Virus record (IMG/VR): IMGVR_UViG_3300035181_000419
Location: 1-60,490 of that record
Reading direction: 5' to 3' (one strand)
Source of the DNA: a virus
Lineage: Duplodnaviria; Caudoviricetes
Length of the DNA: 60,490 bases
The translations under genes were made by a program, and so were the position numbers. Under the pieces are notes generated by a model. The model was not told where the DNA came from and did not search any database. It saw only the letters and a list, made by a program, of their open reading frames with translations. Each line of letters starts with the position of its first letter. Positions within the stretch are counted from its first letter, which is position 1. Positions 14,148-50,932 of the stretch are shown in pieces.

Positions 14148-14836
14148 CTCACTAACCCAGCGCCTGGAAATCCACCATAAGGAAGCGGCGTAGTCGGTCC
14201 GAAGTGCTGTAGACACCCGCCGTCGCCAGTTGCGTCGTTCAGAGTTTTATTACAAGTGGCCAGAGCTCCAGCATACCCGCACTCATATCCTTTGTAAACC
14301 CAGGGACAGATAGTTGCCTGGATAACCCTGCGCGGAAGTTTGAGACCCTGCGCGTCCATCTTGCTGGCAAGCTCAAATGAGATGAAATCCTTTGTTTCAA
14401 GGGCCTTGCGTTCTATGACGAATACGTCGTCAGGCAAGTAGGCATTAGGATTAGGGCTTGAACCTGTGGGGAGGAACTTGGCGAGCGTCCTCTTTCTTAT
14501 GAGCGTCGCCCCTACCAAATCGTCGTAGTCTCGGATCATTAGCCCAATCAGGCCGTCAACAGCCGCAACTGTGATCTTTGGTCTGGGCAAGGTGCCCTTT
14601 CCGGTTATTTCAAATCCCTCTGCCTTGATCGGGAATGCCTGATAGGTGTTGTTCTGCCAGACGATGTTGGCCCACACATCGTTCGTTCCGGCGTGGAAAT
14701 AAGTCAGACCCCCGCCGATGCTAGGATCACTAGCGTCGAGAACGAATAGTTCAATAATAGCGCCGGGATCAAGACTCGCTATTTCCCGGCGCGGCGTGGG
14801 GTCAACATACCCTGGATCTAAGCGAGAAAGAGTCAC
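14144..14836 (-). CDS. Minor tail protein L (lambda gpL-like)
   Basis: IELFVLD, LPRPKITV, C-terminal Cys cluster, YGGFPGA. Confidence 0.92.
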   Translation of the reverse strand: MTLSRLDPGYVDPTPRREIASLDPGAIIELFVLDASDPSIGGGLTYFHAGTNDVWANIVWQNNTYQAFPIKAEGFEITGKGTLPRPKITVAAVDGLIGLMIRDYDDLVGATLIRKRTLAKFLPTGSSPNPNAYLPDDVFVIERKALETKDFISFELASKMDAQGLKLPRRVIQATICPWVYKGYECGYAGALATCNKTLNDATGDGGCLQHFGPTTPLPYGGFPGAGLVR

Positions 14837-15168: not shown

Positions 15169-18100
15169 TCACCGTCCATTCACAAAGTCGTAGATTATAC
15201 CGTTGGGGCGCTGTTCGTCCATGATTACTTCTCGCATCTTAGCCGCAAGACTGCGGGCCACTGCGATACTCTGGTCATTAGATCCACTTTCCTGGGTTTG
15301 GGTGCTACCGTTGGCGGCCACAGTAACGCTCAGGTAAACGTCCCCAGTGCCTCTGGGCTGCGCCGCTTTGGCTTGGCTGGTGGGCGTGCCCGCCACGCTA
15401 AAGGCCGCAGAAGCGCCATTATTTTGAGCCAAGCCCCCCAATTTGCCCGTGAACCCGCCCGCTCCAGAAGTATTGAGTCCAGATCCGACATTTGAGTAAT
15501 TCCCTGTTCCTGGGGCCGCAGGGGCACTGCCACTGAAATACGATGCGAAGGTGGACCAGAACCCTGCCCCGCCACCCTTGGTAAGCGAGGTCAGTGAAGC
15601 GGCCAGTGCGTCCATGATCGGCTTCATGATCATTGCCTTTATGATTGCCACTTCCATGTCACGAACCATACTGGCGAACATCTTGTGCCAGTTTGTGGAA
15701 GTGCCATTGAAGAAGTCTGCCAGTAAGGTAGACGTCTGATCGGTGTAACCTTTGACAACCTGCCCCATGGCAGCCCACGCTGAGCCGCTCGTTTCTTTGA
15801 GCTTAATGAGCTGGCGTTCGTAGGTTGTCAGAGACATGGTAGATTTTCTGGCAATTAGCTGCTCTAAATCGCGCGCATACTTTTCTTCAGGTCGCTCGTT
15901 TCCAGATATGAAGCCGCCAGACTTAGCATCCTCCAGTCCAAATTTGAGCTTAGCGTAGTCACCCGGCCCCAATGCGCCTTCATCGCGTAGTTTGTTCAAC
16001 TTTGTAAGAGATATTTCATAAACCGTAGCCGCATCGTTAAGATTCTTGTAGTTCTGAACAAAAGCCTTCATGTAGTTATTAGTGGCCTCAAGTTTCTCGG
16101 CATCGGTAAGTTTGCTCCGATCAGTTAGCATTGAATTTTGGGCTTCTAACTGGGCAGCGAATAATTCCCGCGCGGACTTTGCAGCATCATTATTGGCTTT
16201 AGTCAGCTCCTCAGTGCTTAAAAGAATATCATCAAATATCTTTCGGTCATTAGCCCCCTCCAGAGACCTAATGAGGGCCAATTCTGTTTTGCGCGCCTCC
16301 GCTATAAGCGTCCTCATCTTATCGGCGGCCAGCTTCGGCGCCTCATCGCCCTTCTTACCATGATCCGCATTCATGGCCCGCCATCCGGCGATTTCCTTTT
16401 CAGTATCCAGGCGAACCTTGTTCACTGCGAGTTCAAGAGAGCTCATAGAGGAGCCCTTGGCGATAGCGTCTTGGATCTTTTCTTCCATAGCCGCCATCTG
16501 TTTCTTGAAGTATAGCAGACGCTCAGCGTTAGCAGTCTGAATTTCTTCCGCTTTTTGCCTGGCTTTGGCCTTCCTTATCTCTTCATCTTCGTGCTCTTTT
16601 TGTTCTTTGAGATGCTTCGCGGCCTCTGCCCTTGCTTTGGCAAGCTCGTCTGCCGCTATACGCGCCGCTTTCTGGGCCGCCCCTAGCGTATCATTATCTA
16701 CACCATCAAAGTGCGTGATACCATACCATATATCCTTTAGCGCAAGTTTCAAGGTTCCAGCTTGGGCCTTTGTTTCTTCCATTTTAGCGTTGGCAGCGTT
16801 GAGATCGTCAATTAACTTCCTAATTTGAGGAATGTTATCTATATCTATTTCTTCTTTCTTCTTTTTCCGCTGATTTTTATTACGAATTCTATCAAGTTCT
16901 GCCCACTGAGCCGCCTCTTCCTTCCACTTAGCGATCAATTTGTCTGCTGAGGCGGCGTCCTCCTCAGCATCCGCAACAGAAGTATCCCGGTATTTCATTA
17001 CAGCGGCAGTCAGCGCAGTGATAGCAATAAATATTAGACCTATCGGGCCGCCAACCGCCGTTATCGCTTCGTTAGCCATGATAGCTGCCTGCCCAACTAG
17101 GGTCTCTGCTTCCGCCAACCTAATCTCCGCGGCCGTCAGAACAGCGTCCGATTCAGCTACCCGCAGATTAGCGAGGGCCCGCCGATTGATCAATTCATTG
17201 GTCAAAAACCGACCCTTCTGAGCCGCAACCTCAGCCTCGACTGCAGCCTGATCAGCGAGCGCGGCTACTTTCGCAGACGCCGCATACTGAATCTGGGACA
17301 TAGTCATCGCTCTGAATGAATCGATTCCCCCAGACGCCCACTTGTGGAAAGCTGCGCTGGCTGCCTGGAACCACTGGACTACTTTGAACGCAGCGAAACC
17401 AGCGGCCAACATTTCTAGAGAATCTTTCATTTCTACAAGTGTGCCTATGAAAGTCTCTACGTAGCCAATGGCGGTCTTAACATCTTCCGCCAAGTTATTC
17501 GCAAAAGTAGCCTGCCCACCAGAATCTTGCCATGCCTTCATTGCCTCAGATGCGTCCTTGAATGCACTCACCAGTGCAAAGACAACTTCCGTCGTAGCAG
17601 CGTTGAAAGTTTCCCCGATCTTTACCTGAAGATTTTCAGTGTAGCGGACCATTGACAACATCTGCTTGCCAGCGGTAGTCATCGCCGCTTCGTACACACC
17701 GAAGCGCTTCGCGCCTTCGCTAAGCACGGCATCCATACGAATTTCTGCCAGTGTCTTAGCATCTATACTTTCAACTGCTACATGATTAGCGCGGGCGTAT
17801 TCATTGATGGCCGATTTGAAATTCACCATAATGCCCATATGGCGAATGATACGAGACTCTCCAGTTGAAATACCCTGGACCAGCTTAGCAAAGGCCTCCG
17901 AGCTATTAATTCCCGCTAATGTCGCTCCATCCTGTGCCACGCGGCCCAGCTCGGCAGCTTTAGACAGATCTACCTGTGCAGCCGCCATGAGCTGAAGACC
18001 TTGACGAGCTCTCAAAGCGCTGATTCCTGTCTTCTCCATGTCTTCCTGGAAACCCTGCATCTCGCTTCTAGTGAGTCCGGCATTATTGGCCATGACCCCC

Positions 18101-26572: not shown

Positions 26573-27916
26573 TCAGCCGTAGTAAGTCTTAGTGACAGAA
26601 AGACTCTGCCCGCCAATAAAACGATAGACAATGTAGTATCCAAGTCCATCCGATAAGTGGGTCAGTTTCGCGTCCTGATGCTTATCAATCTCGCCACTGC
26701 CACCTTCAAGCAGCCGCACACCGTCCAAATCGCGCGATGTCATGGGGGCTCGGCTCGGGTCACAATAGAGATGCCTCTCTCCTACGACATTCAGAATGCG
26801 GCTGTTCATGCAGTTCACCCTCGCGCGCTCAGTGGGATTCGCACGAGGCACAAAATACATGAATCGTTCTCCAAAGTGCGGTTTAAGCACCGACCTGACC
26901 AGATCCCAATCAGAACCCTGGGTCGCCGACGTCTTTCTGTTCCCTCCGGTGGCGTCGCCATACACATGAACTTCACCCTGGTGCTCGCCCCACACTTCAA
27001 TGAGTTTCCGGCATACGGCCACGGTATTAGAATTCTGAGGTATGTAAACCTCGCCGATAACCTTAGTTCCGACGAGCCCGTTCGGGAGGATCCCCTCCTG
27101 GGCAACGACCGCAACGCCCGGATCCACATTGAAATCAAAGCAGAACGCGATCGGAGCCTTTGGATCGTAATCCAGTCTAGCTTTGTTCGCGTCGGTATAG
27201 TTGTAGTAGGCCCTTCCAACGAAGTTGACAAAGGATCCCTCGTATTCCTGTTGGAAGGTAAGCTCGTCCATGTCACGCTTAGCCGACTCAATCGTCTTCG
27301 CGTCTAAGACCTCAGAACTCTTCCAGTGGTAGTAACCCCACTCGCTCGCATCTCCGAACTCAATCATCTGTGCTTTGGCATACTCGGCGATGTCGTAGTA
27401 GTGATTTCTTCCTTCAGGCACGCCGATCAGATCACACCAGCCCTGCCGGTCAGCCAGTGCAGGCCGGACGTTCGCGTTCCAGGCCGACGCCTTCATGTTG
27501 CCGTATTCATCAAGGATCCCGCCGTCCCAGGGCGATCCTTCAATGCGCTCGGGCTTGTCCATGCCCACGACCATGATGGTCGAATTCATAATGGTGGTGA
27601 TGGAAAGCTCTGTTTCTGAGATCCCACGGGGGGCGACCAGCCGCTTCGGCACCAAGAGCTTCAGATCATTCCAATAGATGCGCTTGGCCTGATCCCGAGT
27701 GGGCGCCCCGCAGAAGTATCGTGGATCCGGAAAGTTGCTCGCTCCAGGCATCCCGGGTGGCATGAGCGCCCGCAGCACGAGTTTCCGCTTTGCGTTCTCT
27801 GTCTTCCCCGATCGTCGCCCCGCAGGCACCACATTGAACCTGTGGGGGGAGTTCGCATACTCCATCTGTGGCTTGATCTCGCGCAGTGGAGTCCAACGAG
27901 CGGGGAGGCTGAGCAT
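26573..27916 (-). CDS. terL: Terminase large subunit
   Basis: Walker A GRRSGKT, Walker B ILDEY, RNase H-like DFNVDP and HLSDGLGY. Confidence 0.95.
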   Translation of the reverse strand: MLSLPARWTPLREIKPQMEYANSPHRFNVVPAGRRSGKTENAKRKLVLRALMPPGMPGASNFPDPRYFCGAPTRDQAKRIYWNDLKLLVPKRLVAPRGISETELSITTIMNSTIMVVGMDKPERIEGSPWDGGILDEYGNMKASAWNANVRPALADRQGWCDLIGVPEGRNHYYDIAEYAKAQMIEFGDASEWGYYHWKSSEVLDAKTIESAKRDMDELTFQQEYEGSFVNFVGRAYYNYTDANKARLDYDPKAPIAFCFDFNVDPGVAVVAQEGILPNGLVGTKVIGEVYIPQNSNTVAVCRKLIEVWGEHQGEVHVYGDATGGNRKTSATQGSDWDLVRSVLKPHFGERFMYFVPRANPTERARVNCMNSRILNVVGERHLYCDPSRAPMTSRDLDGVRLLEGGSGEIDKHQDAKLTHLSDGLGYYIVYRFIGGQSLSVTKTYYG

Positions 27917-27930: not shown

Positions 27931-28476
27931 CTACTCGCCGCCGGGCGCCGCGCCCTCGGCATCTGCTTCTTCCTGAAGCCTCCGCTTCACGAGGTAGGCA
28001 TTGTAGTCAGTCTCCTTACCAGACTGTTTCATCGCCTGATACAGGAAGTCTCGAACCGCGGTCGCTCCATCGTTGTCGCCCTTGGGGGCCTGATCCATAC
28101 CGAGGAACTTGGACCGTCGGTCAGAAATCTTCAGGAGGATGTCAGCGGACTTACTATCCTTGGCCGTGGCCCAATGAATCTTATGGAGCGCGTCCAGGCG
28201 GCTGAGCTCCAGGACCATCACTTCATCAAGCGTCTCCTGAAGCTCCTTGTGCAGAAGCTCCAGGCCCGTCTTCACAAGTTCCCTAGCCATGACGGTGCCA
28301 ATTCCCATGATAGCACCGATTTCCATGTAGTCATGGCCGTCCCGACGGAGCTGCATGGCTTTGAGCACTCGGAGCGAAACTCCCAGGGAGGCTTCGTCCA
28401 CGAACTCAAACACGTCCACATCTGGCGCATCGGGGGGAATTTGCAGGGGCTCCGGTTCTTTCCTAGTCTTCGCCAT
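27931..28476 (-). CDS. terS: Terminase small subunit
   Basis: HTH (G.DY.EIG..MGI), LELSRLDAL, DRRSKFLGMD; upstream of TerL. Confidence 0.8.
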   Translation of the reverse strand: MAKTRKEPEPLQIPPDAPDVDVFEFVDEASLGVSLRVLKAMQLRRDGHDYMEIGAIMGIGTVMARELVKTGLELLHKELQETLDEVMVLELSRLDALHKIHWATAKDSKSADILLKISDRRSKFLGMDQAPKGDNDGATAVRDFLYQAMKQSGKETDYNAYLVKRRLQEEADAEGAAPGGE

Positions 28477-28602
28477 GCTTGGATCCTCTGTAGTCCAGTG
28501 CCAAGTGTAGGGCTGATTGGTTGCGCGAGCAAGCCTTTATGTTCGATCCTCAGTATTTTGCGATTCCATTTGTGAGAGATATCATGAACTGGGATCTCTG
28601 TG

Positions 28603-28682
28603 GGAATAGAAACTGGGCTTCTCCGTGGTTCTATGTAGGAATAGAAACTGGGATTCTCCGATCTCTGGGATTCTCCGATCTC
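28603..28682. repeat. Short GA/TC-rich direct repeats
   Basis: GGAATAGAAACTGGG x2; CTGGGATTCTCCGATCT x2. Confidence 0.8.
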
Positions 28683-28801
28683 TGGTGCGGCGTGAACATT
28701 CCGAACACCAGCATAGATGCACCCCGAGGTGTGCGGAGTATTAGCTCCTCAGTGCTGCGAGACCAGGAGCGCGGAGCCGCCATAATGGCACTGAATGGGC
28801 A

Positions 28802-28895
28802 TATGCTTATATACCTATATACCCGTATGCTTATACACCCACCTTACACATATAATTATATGCACATATGCTTATACACCTACTATGCACATATA
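28802..28895. repeat. AT-rich short repeats
   Basis: TATGCTTATA(T/C)ACC x3; TATGCACATAT x2. Confidence 0.8.
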
Positions 28896-28939
28896 GCTAT
28901 ATAACTACATGCACAGTAAGGCATACTGTAGCCTAAAGC

Positions 28940-28965
28940 AATGCCCAGCGCATAGGCTGGGCATT
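28940..28965 (-). terminator. Hairpin after island gene
   Basis: AATGCCCAGC-N6-GCTGGGCATT. Confidence 0.6.
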
Positions 28966-28983
28966 GGTTGCCTTGCGGCTGTG

Positions 28984-29484
28984 CTAGGCAGGCACGCTAA
29001 GGGTGATTACCTGCTTTTGCCACGCGCACCTAACGTCACCCGCGTTAATGCTAAACCACGCGCCCGTGGCCGGGTGCTGGGCCGCAAGGCCCCGCACCTT
29101 GCACTGGCCGCTGGCCTGGGCCTTGGCCTGCGCGGGCAGGGTGCAGGCCAGCACGGCGCCCACGGTGCAAGGCTGGCCGTTGCTGGCAAGCTGGCCCATG
29201 GCCTGCAAAATGGCGTTGTGCCCGGCGCTGCGCACGCTACCGTTGGCAGGCACGGGCACGGGGCCAGTGGCCACCAGCAAGCCATGCGTGGGCATGGCGC
29301 CCCCGCAGAGCTGGTGCATGAGGGTGGCCTGGGCCTGCCTGCTACTGGCACCCTGCAACGGCGTGCTGGGCGTGGCGGGCACCGGCACGGCGGGCACGGC
29401 GGGCGCCTTAACGGCGGGCGTGGTGGTGGCGGTGGTGGTAGCCTTGGCGGCCTTGGCGGTGGTGGTGGTGGGCTTGGTAGCCAT
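28984..29484 (-). CDS. 166-aa island protein (0 Glu, 1 Asp): T/A/K/P tail plus putative DNA-binding domain paralogous to 41417 and 56100
   Basis: ATG 29484 with AAAGGGG RBS, own promoter and hairpin; TV...D....ITL pattern. Confidence 0.75.
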   Translation of the reverse strand: MATKPTTTTAKAAKATTTATTTPAVKAPAVPAVPVPATPSTPLQGASSRQAQATLMHQLCGGAMPTHGLLVATGPVPVPANGSVRSAGHNAILQAMGQLASNGQPCTVGAVLACTLPAQAKAQASGQCKVRGLAAQHPATGAWFSINAGDVRCAWQKQVITLSVPA

Positions 29485-29531
29485 TGTGTACCCCTTTGGG
29501 TATGGGCCGGGCGGCATTGCCGGGCTTGCAT

Positions 29532-29561
29532 AGTATAAGCATTGCCCATGCCAAAGTGCAA
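29532..29561 (-). promoter_or_regulatory. Promoter of island gene
   Basis: TTGCAC-N18-TATACT. Confidence 0.65.
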
Positions 29562-29724
29562 GGTGCTGTGTTTGCAGCACTTAGCTATATTACCGCCGTG
29601 GCATAGTGCCGCATTGCGGCATAGCATAAAGGCCCGTTTGCCGCTAAGTGTAGCAATAGCATAACTTAACCTGGTGCCGCGTTGGGGCTATGCTATGCCG
29701 CATTGCGGCACCCGCCCACACGGC

Positions 29725-29853
29725 TCGCCCGTAGCAGCTTTCGTGCCAATTCGCCCTTAGCATCTTTCGTGCCAATTCGCCCTAAGCAGCTTTCGTGCCA
29801 ATTCGCCCTAAGCAGCTTTCGTGCCAATTCGCCCTTAGCAGCTTTCGTGCCAA
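29725..29853. repeat. 26-bp tandem repeat, ~5 copies
   Basis: AGCAGCTTTCGTGCCAATTCGCCCT(T/A) at 29733, 29759, 29785, 29811, partial 29837. Confidence 0.95.
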
Positions 29854-30028
29854 AGCCATTCTTTTCGTTTTCGGTTTCTTTATTCTTTTCTTTTCGTAGT
29901 CTATGCCTCAGGCGCGGAGTCGCGCGGAGTCGCGCAGAGTCCCGCTCGAGCGCCCGCGTGTGAGCTCAACCCGTGAGCTCCTCGGCTCCTCGAGCGAGCG
30001 CCCGCGTGTGAACTCCGCGATCTGTGAT

Positions 30029-30108
30029 CCTGAGTCGCGCAGAGTCAGCCAAAAGATGCTCAAATAAGGAGTCCCCTAAGGGACTCCTCGCGTGCTCGCG
30101 TGTGAACT
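30029..30108. repeat. 80-bp dispersed repeat with terminator hairpin (copy 2 at 30412-30491)
   Basis: CCTGAGTCGCGCAGAGTCAGCCAAAAGATGCTCAAA...GGAG(T/C)CCCCTAAGGGACTCC...GCGTGTGAACT. Confidence 0.9.
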
Positions 30109-30308
30109 CAGTTCCAATTCCCGTAGGCACGTCGCTCAGCTTGCTCTATCGCGCGCTGCCACATCTGGTCTATGAAGTCGCGTAATCGCTGATGCCCTGA
30201 TCGCTTGGCGCGGATTTTCCTTGATTCTCCGGCACACAGCCGCTTGCAGAGGATGTTTCCTGTGTAGGGGTGGCGGGGGAGGCGGCGAGTGTGGGTGGGG
30301 GTGGCCAC
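30108..30308 (-). CDS. Small basic hypothetical protein (66 aa)
   Basis: GTG with AAAGGAG RBS between repeated promoter and terminator. Confidence 0.65.
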   Translation of the reverse strand: MATPTHTRRLPRHPYTGNILCKRLCAGESRKIRAKRSGHQRLRDFIDQMWQRAIEQAERRAYGNWN

Positions 30309-30354
30309 TGTAGGCTCCTTTGGGTTGTGACAGGCACCCTTGCCTGGTATGTAT

Positions 30355-30430
30355 AGTATAGGGCCTATGCAGCTCAAATGCGCCTCAAAGTTTAATCAAA
30401 GATTTTCGAGCCCTGAGTCGCGCAGAGTCA
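30355..30430 (-). promoter_or_regulatory. Repeated phage promoter (58-bp copy at 30901-30958; related at 31920-31966)
   Basis: CTTTGATTAAACTTTGA-N24-TATACT. Confidence 0.75.
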
Positions 30431-30490
30431 GCCAAAAGATGCTCAAACAAGGAGCCCCCTAAGGGACTCCATGCGCGCTCGCGTGTGAAC

Positions 30491-30697
30491 TTAGTTTTTC
30501 GGATAAACCTTGATGCCGTCAACGTAGACAGCTTCAACATCGTGCTCGAATCCCGGTCCGGGGTTATTCACCAGACTATGAATCACATCCAGCTCCCTAG
30601 GATCCAAGAACGCGGACCACGCGGGGAGACCGTTGGCGAAGAAAGGGCTGGGAGTCTCGGGAACTCCGGGCTTACGAGTGATTTGGACGTGTGCCAT
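30491..30697 (-). CDS. Hypothetical protein (68 aa)
   Basis: MAHVQITRK..., AAGGTG RBS, ends at repeated terminator. Confidence 0.6.
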   Translation of the reverse strand: MAHVQITRKPGVPETPSPFFANGLPAWSAFLDPRELDVIHSLVNNPGPGFEHDVEAVYVDGIKVYPKN

Positions 30698-30698
30698 G

Positions 30699-30836
30699 TC
30701 AGCCCACCTTGACCAGACGCCGCGCGATGCGGGGGGAGTTGCCGCAGGCGATGAGCCCGCAGAAGAGATACGAGCAAGCCAGTGCCCAGACGGCGACGGG
30801 CCGGGCAACGCGGACAGTGCAGTGGAACTTGGACAT
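30699..30836 (-). CDS. Small hydrophobic protein (45 aa)
   Basis: MSKFHCTV..., GGGGG RBS downstream of repeated promoter. Confidence 0.5.
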   Translation of the reverse strand: MSKFHCTVRVARPVAVWALACSYLFCGLIACGNSPRIARRLVKVG

Positions 30837-31070
30837 TGTGGACCCCCAGGGGCTGGATGGCGGCACCGTTGCCGCTGGTATAAGTATATAGCCCGCGCCA
30901 CTCAAATGCACCTCAAAGTTTAATCAAAGATTTTCGAGCCCCGAGTCGCGCAGAGTCAAGGTAAATATTCTCAAAACAAGGAACCCTTGAAGTCTCCTTG
31001 CGTAGATCTCGGTGCCGAGCCCCCTAGATGCCTGAGATGAAAATGTCTCGGGGGAGTTCGGTGGATTGGC

Positions 31071-31289
31071 TCATGGCTGCCTCGGGATAATGCTGACCAG
31101 GGTGCCACCGTCCACGAGGGTGCCTTTCTCGATCAGGTGTTTGGGGATCATGAGGACAGGGGTGAGCAGTATCTTACCCTCCTCGATGACCTCCATGGCC
31201 AGGATGTCACCCGGTTGAACTCCGGTCTCTGGAGGCAGCGTGATGCGCTTGCGTGAGTCCGTGGTGAGCTGGAACTTCCTAGGCTTCAT
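31071..31289 (-). CDS. AbrB/MazE/SpoVT-type DNA-binding protein
   Basis: TDSRKRITLP...GVQPGD.....EEGKILLTP; GAGGAG RBS. Confidence 0.8.
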   Translation of the reverse strand: MKPRKFQLTTDSRKRITLPPETGVQPGDILAMEVIEEGKILLTPVLMIPKHLIEKGTLVDGGTLVSIIPRQP

Positions 31290-31458
31290 GGGATCTCCTC
31301 ATGTGAATGATACATCGAGTGAGGTGGTCGTAAAACCAGGCCCCTCTGCGCCTCGAAGTGGGGCCCTGACCGCTACCACCTAGGCATGGGGGCTCGAGGA
31401 GCGTAGAGCGTGGCCCAGAGCTGTCTGGGCCACGTTCTGGGTGCGGTGGCGGGGCTGG

Positions 31459-31779
31459 TTAGGGCTGCTCCGGCGTCGAATCCGGCTCCGGTTCCGTCTC
31501 CGGGGCCTCGTTGTTCTCAGGCTCGGGGCGGATGGGCACGTAGCGGATGGGCTCGAGCGGCGCACAGGAGATGTGGTTGATCTTGCATTCTTCAATCCAT
31601 GCCCCAGCCCACGAGTAACAATACTCCAGCTCCTGTTTCTTGAGAGATTCTCCCACGAGTCTCACGGCCTCGCCCAGAGCCTGGGCATTCGTTTCTCCAG
31701 CGGTGTGGACGTCAAGCTCCAGTTCAAACTTGACACGCACTCGGGTCTTGATCTTCTCATTCCACTCGGAAGGTTTCAT
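31459..31779 (-). CDS. Hypothetical protein with acidic Pro/Glu tail
   Basis: ATG overlaps upstream stop (ATGA). Confidence 0.6.
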   Translation of the reverse strand: MKPSEWNEKIKTRVRVKFELELDVHTAGETNAQALGEAVRLVGESLKKQELEYCYSWAGAWIEECKINHISCAPLEPIRYVPIRPEPENNEAPETEPEPDSTPEQP

Positions 31780-31883
31780 CGGGACAGCTCCGCTGCGAGG
31801 GCCAGCGTGAAAGCGCTGGCGAGGGTTGCGAGGATGATGCCTGAGAGCCAGGCTTTGAGAACGCGAGTTTGTGCCCTTGGCAT
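31776..31883 (-). CDS. 35-aa membrane peptide (not in track)
   Basis: MPRAQTRVLKAWLSGIILATLASAFTLALAAELSR; GGAGG RBS after promoter. Confidence 0.55.
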   Translation of the reverse strand: MPRAQTRVLKAWLSGIILATLASAFTLALAAELSR

Positions 31884-32025
31884 GATAGCCTCCGTGTGCA
31901 GGGTGGCCCTGCACCTATAAGTATAGTGCTCGGTGCCTCAATTGCAAGCTCAAAGTTTAATCAAAGTTTGGCTCGTCACTAAGAGTCGCGTGGAGTCAGA
32001 TTGAATGAATATTCTAGCGGAGATT

Positions 32026-32148
32026 GTCGGTAAAGAGCGGAGTTCGTGGACTCGTGGATCTCCGCGTGTGAACTCAAGTCGCGTCTGTAAAGAGCGGAAT
32101 TCTTTGAGTCTCGGATCTCCGCGTGTGAACTCCAGTCGCGTCGGTAAA
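32026..32148. repeat. 57-bp tandem repeat, ~2.1 copies
   Basis: GTAAAGAGCGGA...GGATCTCCGCGTGTGAACTC.AGTCGCG. Confidence 0.85.
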
Positions 32149-32534
32149 TTAAGGACTGGGATCTCTGTATTATAGCGAAAATGAGCGAAAATGGATTGAG
32201 GGATGAACGTGGAAACTCGGATCTTTGGCCCGATTTATGGAGTAGAAAACACAGATTTTGTGTGGCTCGGCTCTTTGTGCTCAGATCGCTCATCGTTCAG
32301 AGAACATAGTCAACTCGGAAGGATTCCGAATTTTGCATAACTCGGAATCGAGAATCACACCGCCTTTTGGGGGGAGGATTATGGCGGCGCCGGAGATCGG
32401 AGAAGCGAAGAATCTTGGCGAAGATCTGGGCGCTTAACAGAATCTTATCGGGGAATCTTATCGGTGGATCTTATCAATTACTCATTATGGGCAGGCATAC
32501 TCCGTGCCAAAAGGCATCAGAGATCCAAGTTTCC

Positions 32535-32655
32535 AAAAAGTTTATTTTAAGTGTAACCATCTATATATACCTAGAATAAAATAAATAAATATAATAAGTA
32601 AATAAATAGGAAAGTATAGAGTTATAGTTGTGTATTTTGTTTTACAGTATATAAG
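32535..32655. other. AT-rich tract at strand switch, candidate replication origin
   Basis: ATAAAATAAATAAATATAATAAGTAAATAAAT in an otherwise GC-rich genome. Confidence 0.45.
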
Positions 32656-32893
32656 ACCGGCACGCGCAAAAGCCCTTTTTTCGTTATTCAACCTATTGCA
32701 AACAGGGCACATGAGTTTTACGTTTCAAAAGCATTTCCAGCCCCCCACCCGAGAAGCCCAAAATCTGGCCCAATTATGGAGCAAAATGCTCGGTGCCAAA
32801 CTATTACATAAGGTGCCTCGGGGAGTCCCAGAGCCACCTTATATAATAAGCCCCCGCAGACCCAAAAACCGCGCTATTCCGTAAAACAAGCCG

Positions 32894-32922
32894 TTGCGCA
32901 TGAGGAAAACACACCCTATACT
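32894..32922 (+). promoter_or_regulatory. Promoter for early arm
   Basis: TTGCGC-N17-TATACT. Confidence 0.75.
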
Positions 32923-32953
32923 TAGCTAGGCACGGTGGCCTAGGGAGAAACAC

Positions 32954-33457
32954 ATGGAAGAAGAGGAATATATTCCCAAGCGAAAGTCGTCACTTACGGA
33001 GGAACAGCGCTTCGACGATAAGTTGGTGAAGTCCCCCAACTCCGACTGCTGGCTGTGGCAGGGAACGCGGGGCCGAGGCGGGCAGTGCCTTTTCACCCTC
33101 AGTAGCGGCAAGCTGGTTCAGGCTGGACGCTATGCCTGGGAGCGAGCGCATGGCCCCCTTGAGGCGGGCGTCCGCGTTTCGAGGACCTGTTTGAATAGGA
33201 ACTGCATGAACCCGGCGCATCTGTATGTTTACGCCCCCGAAGGCTACAAGCCCAAAGTCGGAGCGCCCGAGCGCGAAATGAAGCCGAACATGCGGATGGT
33301 TGAGAAAAAGATCATGGAGCTTCATGCCGAGCTTACAGCCCAGGGCATGGAGGGCGCGGCCATTGCCGCGAGGCTGAAACGTCGGAAAGTAGAATTGTGC
33401 AAGGAGTTTGGGCTGATCGAAGGCACTAAGTTCCTGAAGAAGGGTGCCAAGGAATGA
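32954..33457 (+). CDS. HNH/His-Cys-box-like protein, degenerate active site
   Basis: DCWLWQG...VSRTCLNRNCMNPAHL. Confidence 0.75.
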   Translation: MEEEEYIPKRKSSLTEEQRFDDKLVKSPNSDCWLWQGTRGRGGQCLFTLSSGKLVQAGRYAWERAHGPLEAGVRVSRTCLNRNCMNPAHLYVYAPEGYKPKVGAPEREMKPNMRMVEKKIMELHAELTAQGMEGAAIAARLKRRKVELCKEFGLIEGTKFLKKGAKE

Positions 33458-34141: not shown

Positions 34142-34888
34142 ATGGATGTGAAATCCGTTACATGCGAGGCCCTTAGGGACATGCTGGCCGACCCCCGGAG
34201 GTGGTCCACCGACGATGACGGCCCCAAGGTGAGTCTCGCCGGAGTTAACCTCTCCAGGATGAATCTCGCAGGAGTGGACCTCAGCAGGGCGGACCTCTCT
34301 GGTGCGGATCTCGCTGGAGCGAACCTCTCCAGGGCGAACCTCTCAGGAGCTAACCTCGTGAGGGCGGACCTTTGCGGGGCGGACCTTTGCGGGTCTAACT
34401 TCTCCAAGGCGAACCTCCTTGGGGCTAACCTCTTTGGGGTGGACCTCTATGGGGCGAACCTCTGCGGGGCGGACCTCTCGGAGGCTAACCTCATCAGGAC
34501 CGACTTCACCAGGGCTGACCTCTCCGATGCGGATCTCTACGGAGCGGATATATCGTGGGCGGACTTCTACAAGACGAACATCACCAGGACGGCCTTCTAC
34601 GGGTCTAAATACTGCGGTATGACGTTTGCGGCGGTCGTCGTCATGGTTGGCCTCTACCGGTATCAGTGCTGGGCTGTCGTCACCACCGACGGCACCCCGT
34701 TCGTTCGCATGGGGTGCCTCTGGCATTCCGTGGCCGAATGGGACGCCATCGGCATCCGCAACAGCAACACCACTGAGTTCCCCGATGACGGCAGCGACAT
34801 CTCCGAGGAACGCGCGGAGGCCTTTGAGCTTATGCGGGCCAAGGCGCTCCGTATGGCTGAGGCACACAGGAAGCTGGGTGGGCTGTAG
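34142..34888 (+). CDS. Pentapeptide-repeat protein with C-terminal domain
   Basis: A(D/N)LxG repeats; C-terminal VRMGC....EW. Confidence 0.9.
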
Positions 34889-36192: not shown

Positions 36193-36249
36193 ATGGCATG
36201 GCAACCGGGCCAGCCCTCGCCCCTAACCGGCCCCACGGAGGAAATCGGA

Positions 36250-36876
36250 ATGAAGCCCTATACACGCAAAGAAATCGAGGCCTTCCAGGCTGACCCCAAA
36301 GGGTGGCTCAGGAAGAATGGCGGCTACAGGGCAGATCTTTCCGAGGTAGACCTCCATGACGCAGACCTCTCAGGTGTGGACCTCACCAGTGCAGACCTCA
36401 CCAACGCGAACCTCAGAGGGACGAACCTCTATGGGGCAAACCTCCGCGGGGTGGACCTCCGCGAGGCGGATCTAGCCGGGTCGGACCTCACCAGGGCCAA
36501 CCTCCATGGAGCGAACCTCTATGGTGCGAACCTATCTATGGTAAACCTCTCCGGATCAAACCTATCCGGGTCAAACCTATCAGGGGCTGACCTAGCCGTG
36601 TCGGATCTCTACGGCGCGGACCTTTATGGTGCAGACCTTACCGGGGCTGACCTTACCGGAGCAGGCCTCGCCGGAGCTGGCCTAACCGGGGCGGATCTCA
36701 CTGAGGCGGACCTAACCGGGGCAGACCTCACCAGGGCTGACCTCACCAGGGCGAATCTCCACGGAACGAACCTCTATGGAGCGAACCTCTATGGAGCGAA
36801 CCTCACAGGAGCGGACCTAACCGGGGCCAACCTCTATGGGGCGAACCTCCCTATGACAGAGCTCACCAGGCTCTAA
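36250..36876 (+). CDS. Pentapeptide-repeat protein
   Basis: ~35 A(D/N)LxG repeats; GGAGG RBS. Confidence 0.9.
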   Translation: MKPYTRKEIEAFQADPKGWLRKNGGYRADLSEVDLHDADLSGVDLTSADLTNANLRGTNLYGANLRGVDLREADLAGSDLTRANLHGANLYGANLSMVNLSGSNLSGSNLSGADLAVSDLYGADLYGADLTGADLTGAGLAGAGLTGADLTEADLTGADLTRADLTRANLHGTNLYGANLYGANLTGADLTGANLYGANLPMTELTRL

Positions 36877-42573: not shown

Positions 42574-42806
42574 CACCGGCGCCGGTTTGGGGCGCCATGC
42601 CCCGCGTATGGCGCGGCATTCAACTGGGCCCCAGACCGCCTCAGGCGCGGCTCTGCGGTGTGGGGCGTAGGGGTGTGCTGTGGGGCCGCCCGGCCCGCCA
42701 CGGTGCCTCTATGGGCCTGTGTTAAGGACCAAAAGGTTGATTTGGCGCCGATATTATTGATGCCGTATGCTTTAGGTGGGCCAAGCGGCCCTAGAAGGGG
42801 ATAATC

Positions 42807-43513: not shown

Positions 43514-43880
43514 GACATGTGTTCTTTACACGACTAAGGTGTGCCACGAGCGAGTCAAGGTCGGCAGTATCCTTTGTAGCACGATGCGTGGCGCACTCCT
43601 GAAAGTAATTGAGGTCCGCACTAATGGGGGCCTCCTGGCCGAGACCTACGGAGGATTCCTTCACGGGCGCATCTCCCCCGCAGTCAAACCACGCCGGACG
43701 GCACTGATCCAGCCTTATTCTGACAGTGCCAAGATCTACAATGTCCCGAGTGGTGATGGCAAGGTGCTCAGCGGAGAAATGTTCTGCTGCTACCGCCATG
43801 TCACCTTAGTTCCAGTGGCAGAAGTCACACGCACCTTCCTCGACGATGGTTCTGTCCTCATCAACAGCAGTATTCTATAG
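43506..43880 (+). CDS. Hypothetical protein
   Basis: Coupled ORF. Confidence 0.55.
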   Translation: MSETCVLYTTKVCHERVKVGSILCSTMRGALLKVIEVRTNGGLLAETYGGFLHGRISPAVKPRRTALIQPYSDSAKIYNVPSGDGKVLSGEMFCCYRHVTLVPVAEVTRTFLDDGSVLINSSIL

Positions 43881-43889
43881 GAGCCCAGT

Positions 43890-44078
43890 GTGCATATCCA
43901 CGAAAGCATCACCCCCGAACGAGTTGCAGAAATGGCTAAAAGAGACGACTGCGAAGGCATCTGCATCGCCTGTGGTGAGGATGCCTGCGGGGTTGAACCC
44001 GACGCGCGGAACTACGAGTGCGAGTGCTGCGGGGCGCACAAGGTGTTCGGTGCAGAAGAACTTCTTTTCATTGTTTGA
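43890..44078 (+). CDS. Small zinc-ribbon protein
   Basis: CIACG...VEPDARNYECECCG. Confidence 0.75.
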   Translation: MHIHESITPERVAEMAKRDDCEGICIACGEDACGVEPDARNYECECCGAHKVFGAEELLFIV

Positions 44079-44087
44079 GGGGCGTAA

Positions 44088-44285
44088 ATGGATAAGATCT
44101 TCCACATCCACGGGTGGGCGTCAGACGGAAAGCCGCTTATTCGGCATGGGACTGAGATCATGGGCGCGGCTCTCGGTAAGAAAGACCGAGCAACTCTGGC
44201 TTCGCTTAAAGTTGGGGAATCCTTCACCCCTTTGTTCACAACCCTGTCAGGTAAGATCGCCTACCGTGTGGAGCGTGTCCAGTGA
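44088..44285 (+). CDS. Hypothetical protein
   Basis: GAGGGG RBS. Confidence 0.6.
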   Translation: MDKIFHIHGWASDGKPLIRHGTEIMGAALGKKDRATLASLKVGESFTPLFTTLSGKIAYRVERVQ

Positions 44286-44911
44286 AGACTCCCTCTGTCC
44301 ATGAACAAATCAGAGCCTATGGGGGAGAGACACTGTCAAATGAACAGATCATTGATCTGTTGCTCCCAGGTATGGGGCCGGGGCATCTGGGCGCATGGCG
44401 CCTCAGCGAACTCATTAGCATGAGTGGACAGCAGCTTGTGGAAGAGTGCGAGCTAACGAAGCTCCAAGCATCGCGGATCGTAGCTCTTGGTGAATTCGTC
44501 CGCAGGTGTGGCGCCCCCTCAAAACACGCTTGCATCAATACTCCCCGGTTGGCCGGAGAATATCTACTTCCGAAAGCTAAGGGTTTGACAGAGGAGGTAT
44601 TCGGTGTCGTGTGCCTTAACTCCAGAGCGCGCGTTATATCTGATCGCATTGTCTCAAAGGGAACGTCTACGGGGACTCTCGTTGGACCACGCGAAGTTCT
44701 TAGAGAAGCGCTTCTTAGAGGGGCCGTGTCCGTGCTCGTGTGGCACAACCATCCGAGCGGCGATCCAAGCCCTAGCCGAGAAGACATATCTCTCACGCGA
44801 CGTCTCCGCGCAGGATGCGATGCTATCGGAGTTCCTCTTGCGGACCACATCATTGTGGGCGAAGACACCTACCACAGTTTCAGATCCTCGGAGGGCTGGG
44901 ATGTTAGATGA
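44282..44911 (+). CDS. radC: RadC-family JAB domain protein (full length)
   Basis: HNHPSGDPSPSRED...DHIIVG plus N-terminal helical part. Confidence 0.92.
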   Translation: MKTPSVHEQIRAYGGETLSNEQIIDLLLPGMGPGHLGAWRLSELISMSGQQLVEECELTKLQASRIVALGEFVRRCGAPSKHACINTPRLAGEYLLPKAKGLTEEVFGVVCLNSRARVISDRIVSKGTSTGTLVGPREVLREALLRGAVSVLVWHNHPSGDPSPSREDISLTRRLRAGCDAIGVPLADHIIVGEDTYHSFRSSEGWDVR

Positions 44912-45314
44912 ACGCTTCAAACTTAAATGCAAGCTCATGGCCACACTGAGGGCTGGAACATGGAAGCCTGATGGTCGTGAGAACGGCTATTTTGAGCTGG
45001 ATCTAATTAGGGCGCTTCAAGCAGCCACCGATATAATGAGTATGGCGGAGAAAACAGAGTCGAAAGCAGAAAAGAAACCAGAGCCCCAGCATCCAACCAT
45101 CAAAGAGAAGCTGCGTGGGGACACAATTCGTATCCAGCGCGTAGACCAATATGGCGTGCGTGGGACGTCTATTCCTGTGTGGGCGCGTGAGGCTATCCTG
45201 AAGGAAGGTATCGGCCTACTCGCGAATAATATCTGTATGCGTTTTCCAGCCAGTCTATATTCTCGCGTCGCCATAGAAGAGCAAGCATACCTGCTGAAGC
45301 AGCTTGGCCTGTAA
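44901..45314 (+). CDS. Hypothetical protein
   Basis: GGAGGG RBS before ATG 44901. Confidence 0.6.
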   Translation: MLDERFKLKCKLMATLRAGTWKPDGRENGYFELDLIRALQAATDIMSMAEKTESKAEKKPEPQHPTIKEKLRGDTIRIQRVDQYGVRGTSIPVWAREAILKEGIGLLANNICMRFPASLYSRVAIEEQAYLLKQLGL

Positions 45315-45428
45315 AGCGGGGCCGCAGAGCGCGTCAGGGTTGGGCCATGGCTGGGCGGCGTGCCCAACATGGCCCAAAGCCTTGAGCGGGCGCCTGAGCG
45401 CATCGGGGCGCGGTCCCATTTGCGGCCC

Positions 45429-45457
45429 TTGCGCTTTACCGTGGCAGGGCTTAACAT
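45429..45457 (+). promoter_or_regulatory. Promoter for primase-helicase
   Basis: TTGCGC-N17-TAACAT. Confidence 0.55.
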
Positions 45458-45493
45458 TACCTTCCGGCCATTTATGCAGCTATAGGGGTTAGC

Positions 45494-47539
45494 ATGAGTA
45501 ATAAGCTCCAAACCAGTGACGATGTCATGGTCGAAATGCTTGACAAAATTAGAAAATCAGGCCTAACTGAAAAGCACGCCGCTCGGCTTGGGTTCGACAC
45601 ATATACGGCCCAGGAGGCTCTAACCTCCAACCTGCCCTTTCCCAAGGCTGGGTTCAAGATCCCTTACTTTGACTTAGCTGGCAACGAAACAAAATTCTGG
45701 CGCTTCCGTTATCTTGAGTCTACCCTAAACGCTTGGGACAAAGCGACTGGTAGGAAGGAAATGCGCTACTGTCAGCCAAAAGGCTCGTTGAACGAGTTAT
45801 ACCTGCCCCCTCTAGTTAACTGGGCCAAGATAGCTGGAGATACAACGGTCGCAGTTATCATTACGGAGGGGGAATTGAAGGCAGCCTGCGCCTGCGCCGC
45901 TGGGTTCCCCACCATCGGGCTAGGAGGAGTCTGGTGCTTCAGGTCGTCTGCAAATCACATGCACCTGCTTCCGATGTTTGATGAATTCAAATGGGAGCAG
46001 CGAACAGTCTTCATCTGCTATGACTCCGACGCCGCTGTGAATACGAAAGTTATGGCCGCAGAGAACGCCCTGGCCCGCGAACTAACCCTGCTAGGAGCCG
46101 TGCCCTTCGTCGTTCGCCTGCCCCAAACATCCCCGCCTCTTAAAACGGGGCTTGATGATTATTTAGTTGAGGAAGGGGTGGAGGCACTGAAGGTCGCGCT
46201 GCAAGAAGGTGTGGAATGGCGGGCCGCTAAAGAACTATTCAAACTCAACGAAGAAGTGGTGTATGTCAGAGATCCTGGTGTCATCCTTCGGCTTGATAAC
46301 ATGCAGAAAATGACACCCATGAGTTTCACTAACCATGCCTACGCGAACCGCCGGTATTTTGAGGAAGTAATCGGCGCCAAAGGCGTGAAGCTAGTAGAAC
46401 GAAGCGCCCCAGCAGAATGGATGAAGTGGCCCCTTCGCGCAGAAGTTGCCCGCTGTGTCTACAAACCGGGTGAAGACCACTTCTACAAAGGGGCGATGAA
46501 TACATGGCCCGGATGGGGCTGCTACCCCGCTGAGGGATCTGTCCAGCCGTGGGAAGAGCTCATGGAATATATGTTCAATGTTGAAGACATCCCAGAACGC
46601 GCCAAAGATCGCAAGTGGTTTGAGCAATGGCTGGCATATCCACTTCAACATCCAGGAGAAAAGCTCTATACCGCCGCAGTTTTCTGGGGAACAAGGCATG
46701 GCACAGGCAAGTCACTGATCGGCTATTCCATGATCAAGATTTATGGGAAAAATGGAACTGAGATTGGCGACCGTGACCTTCATGCTTCGTTCAATGAGTG
46801 TATGGAAAATAAGCAGTTCATCATGGGAGAGGAGATAACGGGCGGGGATAAGCGGGCCGTGGCTGATCACATGAAGTCAATGATCACCCAAAAGCAGCTC
46901 AGATTGAATGTCAAATACATCCCAAGCTATACGATTGACGATTGCATCAATTATTACTTCACAAGTAACCACCCCGACGCATTCTTCCTAGAGGATACGG
47001 ATCGTCGGTTTTTTATTCACGAAATAAATGCGCCGCCGAAGCCGTTCAAGTTCTATTCCGACTACATGACTTGGCTGAACGGCAGCGGTGCCAACGCATT
47101 GTTTGACTATCTATTGAAGATCGACTGCTCAGACTTCAATCCGCAGGGCGCCGCCCCCATGACAGTGTCTAAGCAAGAAATGATTGATAATGGCAAGAGT
47201 GATATTGCCGCATGGGTCGCGCTACTTAAAGATCAGCCCGATTATGTGACGCGACTTGGCGGTGTGACCTTGAAACATCGTCTTTGGTCCGCCACAGAAC
47301 TTCATTCAATATACGATAAGGATGGGCGCGGCAAGACGACAGTGGGAGGCATGGCGCGAGAATTGGCGAGGGCGGGTATTGAGAAAGCTGCGGAAGGGGC
47401 GAATATTTTCACTGACCATGGTATGCAGAAACTGTGGATTATCAGGCCGATTCCCCACACGGTATCCCCCGCTGAGTTGTCTGAAATGTATCTCACAGAA
47501 CGGGGGATTGCGTGCAAGAAAACTACTACAAAGTTCTAG
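45494..47539 (+). CDS. Primase (TOPRIM/DUF3854-like)-helicase (SF3-like) fusion
   Basis: ITEGELKA, YDSD, GLDDYL; Walker A GTRHGTGKS; FTSN, DRRFF. Confidence 0.9.
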   Translation: MSNKLQTSDDVMVEMLDKIRKSGLTEKHAARLGFDTYTAQEALTSNLPFPKAGFKIPYFDLAGNETKFWRFRYLESTLNAWDKATGRKEMRYCQPKGSLNELYLPPLVNWAKIAGDTTVAVIITEGELKAACACAAGFPTIGLGGVWCFRSSANHMHLLPMFDEFKWEQRTVFICYDSDAAVNTKVMAAENALARELTLLGAVPFVVRLPQTSPPLKTGLDDYLVEEGVEALKVALQEGVEWRAAKELFKLNEEVVYVRDPGVILRLDNMQKMTPMSFTNHAYANRRYFEEVIGAKGVKLVERSAPAEWMKWPLRAEVARCVYKPGEDHFYKGAMNTWPGWGCYPAEGSVQPWEELMEYMFNVEDIPERAKDRKWFEQWLAYPLQHPGEKLYTAAVFWGTRHGTGKSLIGYSMIKIYGKNGTEIGDRDLHASFNECMENKQFIMGEEITGGDKRAVADHMKSMITQKQLRLNVKYIPSYTIDDCINYYFTSNHPDAFFLEDTDRRFFIHEINAPPKPFKFYSDYMTWLNGSGANALFDYLLKIDCSDFNPQGAAPMTVSKQEMIDNGKSDIAAWVALLKDQPDYVTRLGGVTLKHRLWSATELHSIYDKDGRGKTTVGGMARELARAGIEKAAEGANIFTDHGMQKLWIIRPIPHTVSPAELSEMYLTERGIACKKTTTKF

Positions 47540-48504: not shown

Positions 48505-49422
48505 ATGGCAATCAGGGGAATGAAGGCGGCCACCGCGCCCATGGATCTTCGCAAGATACGTCTTCCGAAGTATGGCAGCACTAAGATCAATGGTGTGCGC
48601 GGAATCGTTGTTGATGGTGTGTTGATGAGCTACAACATGAAGCCCATCGTAAACGACTTCACCCAGGCCATGTTCGGCAGGCCGGAATTAAATGGCTTCG
48701 ATGGAGAAATTGTGGTCGGGGCCCCAAACGACCACAATTCACTTCGCAACACAATGAGCGCCATCACTAGGCACCACGGGGAATGCGATGTTCATTTTCA
48801 TATCTTTGATAATTATCTGCTAGATGCTGACTACCGTAGCAGGTATGAAAATCTGCTGTGGCAGCGCGACACTGGAAAGTGGCGTGGCGTGTGCGACCGC
48901 CTTGTGGTCGTTGAACAGAAAATCATCGCAACACACGACGCTCTTGAAGCATTTGAAGAAGATGTCTTGAACCAGGGCTTCGAAGGAATCATGCTGCGCC
49001 GTATTGACGGGCGCTACAAGTTCGGGCGAAGCACCCCTGGCGAAGATGATCTGTGGAAAGTGAAGCGGTTCGTAGACGCAGAGGCTGTGATAATCGGGTT
49101 CGAGGAGGGAATGCACAATGCCAACGAACTTCAAGTGAACGAGCTGGGCAAGGCCAAACGGACTTCCCACAAAGAAAACAAAGTCCCAAAAGGCACGCTC
49201 GGGGGACTGCTGGTTATCGGAATAAACGGCCATTACAAGGGAGTTGAATACCGAGTCGGCATCGGATTCGATCAGCTAACCGCCCAAGAAATCTGGGACA
49301 ATCAGGTCACCTGGATGGGAAAGATCATCAAGGTGAAATACTTTCCAGTGGGAAACCTCAACAAACCGGCCCATACTTCCTTCGAAGGAGAGTTCTTGGG
49401 GGAGCGGCCCGAGGGAATGTGA
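48505..49422 (+). CDS. lig: ATP-dependent DNA ligase
   Basis: KINGVR (motif I), FDGEI, FHIFD, EGIMLR, KVK, OB-fold. Confidence 0.92.
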   Translation: MAIRGMKAATAPMDLRKIRLPKYGSTKINGVRGIVVDGVLMSYNMKPIVNDFTQAMFGRPELNGFDGEIVVGAPNDHNSLRNTMSAITRHHGECDVHFHIFDNYLLDADYRSRYENLLWQRDTGKWRGVCDRLVVVEQKIIATHDALEAFEEDVLNQGFEGIMLRRIDGRYKFGRSTPGEDDLWKVKRFVDAEAVIIGFEEGMHNANELQVNELGKAKRTSHKENKVPKGTLGGLLVIGINGHYKGVEYRVGIGFDQLTAQEIWDNQVTWMGKIIKVKYFPVGNLNKPAHTSFEGEFLGERPEGM

Positions 49423-49516
49423 GACGCAGCAACTTTGAGGGCATCTGGCCTTGCGCATGAGCGTAAGGAGCCCCTACACTTACCCATGGCCCAAACGGGC
49501 ATACTTGGAGGGCCTC

Positions 49517-50920: not shown

Positions 50921-50932
50921 GGGTGGCCGCTA

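Follow-up and report, generated by a model that had tools for sequence, protein, structure and literature searches.

A phage gene cassette almost devoid of GA and TC dinucleotides and its possible link to thymidine hypermodification

Herein, we report that the genome of a phage, IMG/VR record IMGVR_UViG_3300035181_000419, carries an island at 28795-29724 from which the dinucleotide GA and its complement TC are almost completely excluded. The window analyzed is the whole virus record, 60,490 bases. The island holds a predicted transcription unit for a small protein nearly free of aspartate and glutamate. We propose that it is a TC-free, and hence modification-free, cassette tied to the phage's own thymidine hypermodification, a reading that we regard as evenly poised between right and wrong.

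An exact recount agreed with the initial annotation of this DNA, which had named four GA or TC dinucleotides. The 930 bp contain three GA (29005, 29308, and 29320) and one TC (29036), against about 110 expected from the base composition of the island and about 121 from the window-wide GA+TC frequency of 0.131. The binomial probability of four or fewer is 5e-50, and 2000 mononucleotide shuffles of the island gave a mean of 109.5 and a minimum of 80. The three longest GA/TC-free gaps of the window (405, 272, and 212 bases) all fall within the island, the longest elsewhere being 58 bases, and no other dinucleotide class has a comparable gap in the window. The edges are as sharp as had been described, with the nearest outside GA/TC at 28793 and 29725. 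Enrichment of the flanks, also claimed, was seen on one side only: the flank toward the gene at the small-terminase (terS) position has 48 GA/TC per 300 bases (95th percentile), whereas the other has 41, against a window mean of 39.7. Two promoter-side intervals that had been called GA/TC-poor are so: 42574-42725 has 5 where 19.9 are expected (P = 3.5e-5) and 45301-45494 has 7 where 25.4 are expected (P = 6.6e-6), both uncorrected for the choice of intervals.

The depletion affects the two strands equally, GA being TC read on the opposite strand. All four exceptions sit in the open reading frame (ORF), and the 429 noncoding bases (28795-28983 and 29485-29724) contain none. The remaining dinucleotides occur at or above expectation. 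Genome-wide under-representation of 4-6-bp sites, the form expected of restriction-site avoidance, was not the pattern found: the avoided unit is a dinucleotide, within about 1 kb only, and many common palindromic sites are still present in the island. An extended motif around TC was rejected, as the 28 tolerated TC sites have no common context (next base A in 11, C in 7, T in 5, and G in 5). A deaminase-type mutational footprint was also rejected, as the island lacks an excess of TT or AA (AA 30 vs 30 expected, TT 38 vs 40 expected).

The island and its borders comprise the following features.

28592-28691, no strand: GA/TC-rich short repeats between the island and the terS-position gene.
28795-29724, no strand: GA/TC-free island, 4 GA/TC in 930 bp, with the same island in relatives.
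28795-28907, no strand: AT-rich direct repeats at the island end nearer terS, with a unit of about 15-23 nt present about five times.
28936-28969, minus strand: terminator-like hairpin directly past the ORF, from the repeat and terminator scans.
28984-29484, minus strand: ORF of 166 aa (MATK...), under purifying selection, of an acid-poor family.
29491-29497, minus strand: ribosome-binding site (RBS) AAAGGGG, without GA, read from the sequence.
29532-29561, minus strand: sigma-70-like promoter, with -35 TTGCAC at 29561-29556, an 18-nt spacer, and -10 TATACT at 29537-29532.
29606-29628 and 29689-29711, no strand: two copies of a 23-nt palindromic element, upstream of the promoter and within the island.
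29725-29854, no strand: tandem array of 26-bp units outside the island, marking its inner edge and beginning at the first TC.

The promoter, AAAGGGG RBS, ORF, and hairpin that had been reported are thus all readable within the island, the promoter with a weak -35. In a consensus-level comparison, TTGCAC matches three of six positions and TATACT five of six; because of the weak -35, the promoter scan did not list this promoter. The consensus -35, TTGACA, itself contains GA. At this consensus level, the island unit has its own host-type promoter and terminator. Among five aligned relatives, TTGCAC is kept in three and TATACT or TATACA in all five; the RBS is unchanged in three and reads AAGGGG in L006 and L007. 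The palindromic elements keep their stems across relatives while their centers vary, and they are candidates for operator sites or hairpins. The AT-rich direct repeats vary in copy number among relatives; DnaA boxes within them were considered and rejected, the box-like word not being kept in L005. The 26-bp array consists of five overlapping 52-nt copies at 26-bp spacing, the final copy degenerate. It is present in four of the five aligned relatives, and L006 has AT-rich GA/TC-free repeats in its place, which lengthen the island to 1042 bp. Over 28400-33000, Rfam at E <= 1 returned three chance-level matches, all far below gathering scores, and blastn of 28500-30100 against phage records gave no match.

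The island is conserved among close relatives. A search with the large terminase (terL) gave 80 loci, including nine contigs with terL at least 67% identical. Eight of these nine have the island at the same place, two of them cut by the contig end, and the ninth ends before the island position; the other 71 loci, whose terL identity does not exceed 62%, show no island. In the relatives, the island lies upstream of the terL operon, and a further relative, L177, repeats the layout of repeats, island, repeats, terS, and terL. The longest GA/TC-free stretches measure 1042 bp (L006), 959 bp (L007), 872 bp (L011), and 780 bp (L005). In the five-relative alignment, the islands are 75-88% identical in nucleotides, against 97-98% for the TerL protein. 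At least 436 substitutions have occurred in 912 alignment columns, and a random change would introduce GA or TC in 33% of cases, yet the five islands contain 4, 9, 3, 0, and 0. The absence has therefore been actively maintained, and the depletion is maintained by selection on nucleotides.

The ORF in the island is a real gene under purifying selection. Variable columns by codon position number 26, 21, and 96, of 124 each, and synonymous differences exceed nonsynonymous ones in 10 of 10 pairs (37-48 vs 2-18). The encoded protein has an N-terminal part rich in Ala, Thr, Pro, and Lys, and contains one Asp, no Glu, seven Lys, and four Arg. Codons were counted in eight island genes (1274 codons) and in a comparison set of terL, portal, and polA (1578 codons). 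The island genes use 61 AGY against one TCN codon for Ser, GGA in none of 100 Gly codons, CGA or AGA in none of 37 Arg codons, and ATC in two of 23 Ile codons. Asp and Glu account for three of the 1274 codons, against 210 of 1578 in the comparison set. Both codon choice and amino-acid content are bent toward GA/TC avoidance, and the protein almost lacks Asp and Glu because avoidance of GA bars GAN codons.

The protein family is small. A family profile search found only 13 proteins among 1.84 billion representatives; acidic residues number zero or one in 11 of them, two in another, and seven in P0040. The ORF had no Pfam match at E <= 10, tblastn against 50,697 phage records gave a chance-level match only (E 0.2), an ESM Atlas search gave no usable match, and a scan of metagenome contigs for further family members found no relative. 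The initial annotation had spoken of three paralogous proteins, for which no support was found: tblastn against the phage's own genome at E <= 10 found only the ORF itself, and the best other match of the family hidden Markov model (HMM) to all six-frame ORFs was 43810-44301 at E 0.13. The homologue in L007 has Lys/Ala/Pro repeats, and composition alone hints at a winged-helix or histone-H1-like protein. From its charge and from these repeats in some members, we would guess that the island protein binds DNA.

The link to hypermodification starts from a gene cluster at 56552-60456, which the initial annotation had identified as a modification cluster and in which the kinase, the thymidylate-synthase-like enzyme, and a protein with the fold of DNA beta-glucosyltransferase (BGT) were indeed found (5-hmdU denotes 5-hydroxymethyl-deoxyuridine).

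56552-57508, plus strand: GT-B fold transferase of 318 aa, with the T4 DNA beta- and alpha-glucosyltransferases as nearest solved structures.
57505-58353, plus strand: 5-hmdU DNA kinase (PF18723, E 2.2e-44, 152 bits vs a cut-off of 25).
58353-59345, plus strand: thymidylate-synthase-like enzyme (PF00303, E 2.4e-18; phrog_5131, E 5.5e-112).
59287-59841, plus strand: HD-domain nucleotidase-like protein, from domain matches.
60055-60456, plus strand: DUF3310/nucleotide-kinase-like protein, from domain matches.

The transferase had no match in Pfam (E <= 0.01) or PHROGs. Its AlphaFold2 (AF2) model has a pLDDT of 93.1, and the predicted structure has a two-domain GT-B fold closest to BGT and DNA alpha-glucosyltransferase (AGT). 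The best Foldseek match was T4 BGT 1c3j (E 1.4e-8, TM 0.68), ranks 1-9 were all BGT or AGT entries, and T4 AGT 1y8z followed with TM 0.54. Identity to BGT is 10-13%, and the likely substrate here is 5-hydroxymethyluracil (hmU) rather than 5-hydroxymethylcytosine (hmC), which sets it apart from the T4 enzymes. The 58353-59345 product is a candidate dUMP hydroxymethylase by homology, so that the phage carries two components of a 5-HMUDK-type pathway, a dUMP hydroxymethylase homologue and a 5-hmdU DNA kinase. An amino-acid/polyamine:DNA transferase (aGPT-Pplase/AADT) was found in none of 20 replication-arm ORFs searched against Pfam or 13 against PHROGs, the smaller ORFs not all being scanned; the kinase's neighbor is the GT-B fold protein in its place. 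All nine further viral records with a transferase homologue also carry PF18723, 0 to 6.3 kb away. C follows 29% of the T residues of this genome.

GA/TC depletion tracks the transferase across genomes. Twenty genomes were scored by their most depleted 250-bp window in each of ten strand-symmetric dinucleotide classes, as -log10 P. In all eight transferase-bearing genomes that are 74% complete or better (G000 and G011-G017; seven are 94-100% complete and one 74%), GA/TC ranked first among the classes, with scores of 8.0-16.0. None of the 10 controls reached 8.0, their maximum being 6.8: five terL relatives without the module scored at most 5.3, the kinase-only record G020 scored 6.8, and the cultured T-hypermodifying phages M6, SH-Ab 15599, F8, and EP_H11 scored at most 4.4. 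The transferase-bearing fragments G018 and G019 scored 3.4 and 6.4, respectively. In the other nine classes, 4 of 180 values reached 8. The proposal that TC/GA avoidance is tied to modification genes thus gained indirect support from this comparison, and the module genes themselves were confirmed.

A second clade shows a similar arrangement. G014, G021 (locus L200), and L201 have a terminase backbone unrelated to that of the window (phrog_38 in G014) and carry a similar acid-poor gene in a GA/TC-poor stretch. In G014, this stretch of about 800 bp lies 1.8 kb upstream of terS and holds an acid-poor ORF of 158 aa; it has 16 GA/TC in 780 bases, with 432 bp entirely free of them. L201 has 4 in 701 bp (about 95 expected) and L200 has 24 in 695 bp (about 94 expected). 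G014 and G021 carry both transferase and kinase, as do all three complete or nearly complete genomes with either type of acid-poor gene. Comparison of the two acid-poor families (A3 and A5) by hhalign gave E 0.0022, a probability of 12.8%, and 50 columns, an HMM from A1 only did not find the G014 ORF at E <= 1, and the G014 homologue-like ORF had no family match in PHROGs. A relation between the families is suggested, though not significantly, and they have short motifs in common.

Strand symmetry, the clean noncoding parts, and the link to the transferase together point to a DNA-level target, namely T in a TC context. That the modification has a TC context, that the island escapes it, when the island is expressed, and what its protein does are all inferred. 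The phage would make DNA with 5-hydroxymethyl-dU through the thymidylate-synthase-like hydroxymethylase, with the HD and DUF3310 proteins as helpers. After replication, the 5-hmdU DNA kinase and the T4-BGT-like transferase would decorate a subset of bases, which we take to be T followed by C. The cassette would then be the only stretch of its size, about 1 kb, to be free of adducts in virion DNA. It would supply what unaided host proteins need: a sigma-70-type promoter, RBS, ORF, and terminator, together with palindromic and AT-rich repeats. Upon entry, host proteins could therefore bind and transcribe it immediately, or nucleases that detect hypermodified DNA would pass it over, and its product, a small basic and probably DNA-binding protein, would act on the incoming genome. 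Such a cassette could serve host proteins straight away, stay hidden from nucleases that sense modification, or meet a need of packaging or ejection. A more detailed form, an "epigenetic blind spot", has the BGT-like transferase and kinase mark hmU at TC and so make virion DNA unreadable or visible to nucleases, while the acid-free protein of a TC-free pioneer cassette unlocks or shields the genome; we offer this form tentatively and think it rather doubtful.

Several observations weigh against a modification-free cassette. What is modified in this phage, and in which context, is a prediction from genome sequence. Among phages with a reported modified context, M6 (TG/TC), SH-Ab 15599 (TG), and F8 (TG) have no target-free island of any dinucleotide class, unlike this phage, and EP_H11, with a 24%-identical transferase and a kinase, has no dinucleotide-free island; an unmodified cassette is therefore no general need. 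The view in the initial annotation that host RNA polymerase requires a clean template is weakened in this form, since M6, SH-Ab 15599, and F8 hypermodify T without an island, and weakened again by the second clade. There, the gene itself has 11 (G014) and 16 (G021) GA/TC, clustered at the 5' end in G014, so that a strictly clean template cannot be required. P0040 is 69% identical to the L011 protein despite seven Asp/Glu (hand count); its gene therefore contains GA, and the constraint may have been lost in its lineage. The AF2 model of the island ORF on an eight-row alignment had a mean pLDDT of 39.2, too poor for a fold search. The association with the transferase could reflect common descent or common hosts: the eight genomes amount to roughly six independent lineages, the transferase-bearing genomes have replication and modification genes in common, and similar depleted elements, rich in GC, recur in G011, G012, G013, and perhaps G019. 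The short depleted stretches of G011, G012, and G015 adjoin helicase or polymerase genes and not terS. Finally, the ends of the record do not define a first-entering end: its first 247 bases repeat its last 247 (60244-60490) at about 95% identity, and three related contigs (L089-L091) run across the end junction, so the record ends are an assembly wrap-around. By these overlaps, the assembly is circular or concatemeric and shows strain variation where it wraps around, though the record is labeled linear.

A host weapon directed at TC/GA, unrelated to phage modification and raised as an alternative in the initial annotation, is a serious rival, which we consider unlikely on balance. It could be a DarT-type ADP-ribosyltransferase (TNTC), a TC-preferring cytosine deaminase, or a nuclease, and a gene for immediate use, with an inhibitor or DNA-coating protein as candidate products, would be kept free of its target. 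DarT and deaminases prefer TC. Strand symmetry and the coverage of noncoding DNA, which imply a DNA-level target, suit such a weapon as well, and the island evolves fast (75-88% vs terL 97-98%), as counter-defense genes often do. However, the tracking of the transferase module (8/8 vs 0/10) would be left unexplained unless hosts are shared, the remaining genome with its normal TC content (0.131) would stay exposed, and the AA and TT counts (30 vs 30 and 38 vs 40) carry no deamination signature.

Avoidance might instead serve a DNA process of the phage itself, such as initiating or terminating packaging, ejecting the leading DNA, joining ends, or initiating replication, or it might confer immunity to a phage-encoded TC nuclease. 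The position of the island beside the terS-position gene (in the window, L011, and L177; 1.8 kb from terS in G014) fits this, as does its reach of 140-160 bp past the transcription unit on both sides, where repeat arrays bound it. Known packaging and origin sites, however, span tens to a few hundred base pairs and not a whole gene, the gene faces a different way with respect to terS in each of the two clades, the short depleted stretches of other transferase-bearing phages are not near terS, and no nuclease of such specificity was identified. We consider this explanation improbable.

The coincidence of the island with one transcription unit and its GA-free RBS variant would also be expected if a transcript without GA and UC were selected, for example to escape a sequence-specific endoribonuclease. 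Such RNA-level avoidance is highly improbable, as GA and TC are both avoided on the same strand and the avoidance runs about 160 bp upstream of the promoter and about 140 bp past the terminator, with 0 in 429 noncoding bases. The predicted transcript covers only 28936-29530, and the outer island parts are GA/TC-free in the sequences of relatives. Low-complexity DNA does give high values in other classes (AT/AT at F8 50597-51170; AA/TT in G007), but chance, a by-product of composition, or mutational bias is refuted for practical purposes by P of about 5e-50, the shuffle minimum of 80, persistence through at least 436 substitutions, equally clean noncoding parts, and other dinucleotides at or above expectation.

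Phages that hypermodify thymidine are among the closest known parallels, and in published work the modification occupies fixed dinucleotide contexts, TG or TC. The resistant restriction sites of M6, ViI, and phiW-14 share TG or TC, which is attributed to the kinase (PMC6449724). SH-Ab 15599 carries its modification mainly at TG (PMC13458397), NTC is the favored context of a phage T-dioxygenase (PMC13229309), and kinases phosphorylate about 23% of hmU in SP8 DNA (PMC8989533). A preprint reports sugar-derived T adducts at TG in Pbunaviruses, and END nucleases that, soon after infection begins, attack a diverse set of hypermodified phages (bioRxiv 10.1101/2025.03.31.646159). M6, ViI, phiW-14, SH-Ab 15599, and the Pbunaviruses F8 and 14-1 have the same toolkit as this phage, a dUMP hydroxymethylase homologue and a PF18723 kinase. 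In all of these phages, the modified T is set by the next base, and here a TC context would be the counterpart. The kinase is paired here with a BGT-fold transferase, unlike in those phages, and not with a recognizable amino-acid:DNA transferase.

Leading-region genes such as T7 gene 0.3/ocr and the pre-early region of T5, delivered in first-step transfer, disarm defense before the remaining genome is exposed. Like these, the island is a short, self-contained unit predicted to be readable by host RNA polymerase, it lies beside repeat arrays near the packaging genes, it evolves fast, and it seems shielded from something that acts on the remaining genome. Unlike these, its protection consists in the exclusion of one dinucleotide over about 1 kb, and its product is basic and without acidic residues (the single Asp aside), the reverse of Ocr, an acidic mimic of DNA. 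Restriction-site avoidance in phage genomes leaves short palindromes under-represented. Selection removes a short DNA word in both cases, but here the word is a 2-mer and not a 4-6-mer, the effect is local and not genome-wide, and the amino-acid content of the protein is reshaped. APOBEC3 deaminases leave mild, genome-wide TC-depletion footprints in some animal viruses through mutation and selection; the same dinucleotide is affected here on both strands, but it is lost almost completely and from one region only, and TT and AA are not in excess.

If a modification-free cassette is the right reading, a virus would exempt a portion of its genome from the DNA modification that it makes itself and encode this as a missing two-letter word. 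Our literature searches, mostly at title and abstract level, found no paper describing such an island, which would then be the first case. It would also be a sequence-only predictor of modification context, here TC for an uncharacterized transferase and kinase module. If the more detailed blind-spot form held, segments lacking one dinucleotide would show, from a genome's sequence alone, which sites unknown DNA-modification systems recognize. The island would further be a natural test bed for effects of hypermodified thymine on promoter use, elongation, and recognition by defense nucleases. Whatever the mechanism, a nucleotide-level constraint rewrites a protein here, giving a family of about 150 aa almost devoid of Asp and Glu.

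Beyond the island, the GA/TC-rich short repeats separate it from two genes.

26573-27916, minus strand: terL (phrog_2, E 1.2e-30).
27931-28476, minus strand: gene at the small-terminase position, assigned by position only, directly upstream of terL.

The product of 27931-28476 matches PHROG 645, labeled "Rnase E", at E 1.8e-14; this label is probably a mis-annotation. On the other side of the island, 29.9-32.9 kb has few long ORFs and repeated promoter- and terminator-like modules, with no PHROG matches. Within it, 29900-32300 contains repeat copies of 85-93 nt at spacings of 383 and 528 bases, words rich in GAGTC, terminator-like hairpins, and five small minus-strand ORFs without PHROG match. 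Farther along, in the early arm, 34142-34888 and 36193-36876 encode pentapeptide-repeat proteins (PF00805, E 2e-52 and 7e-61, respectively). Pentapeptide-repeat proteins can mimic DNA, and these two are candidates for antidefense or gyrase-directed factors.

Depleted stretches in other genomes gave further observations. Those of the other transferase-bearing phages are short and intergenic, and the longest single GA/TC-free gap of G011 falls in a low-complexity coding region. GC-rich, GA/TC-poor intergenic elements were located in G012 (14269-14467 and 49237-49445), G013 (26872-27121), G011 (69952-70201), and G019 (16382-16631). They contain similar hairpin-forming words, both G012 copies begin with the same short word, and they are possibly a shared structured element. 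F8 (NC_007810) has 573 bp without AT at 50597-51170, plus a 224-bp AC/GT gap. This stretch is probably a low-complexity gene, and gap statistics can flag regions for unrelated reasons. In G015, 205 bp at 59432-59637, near the record end, are free of AG/CT.

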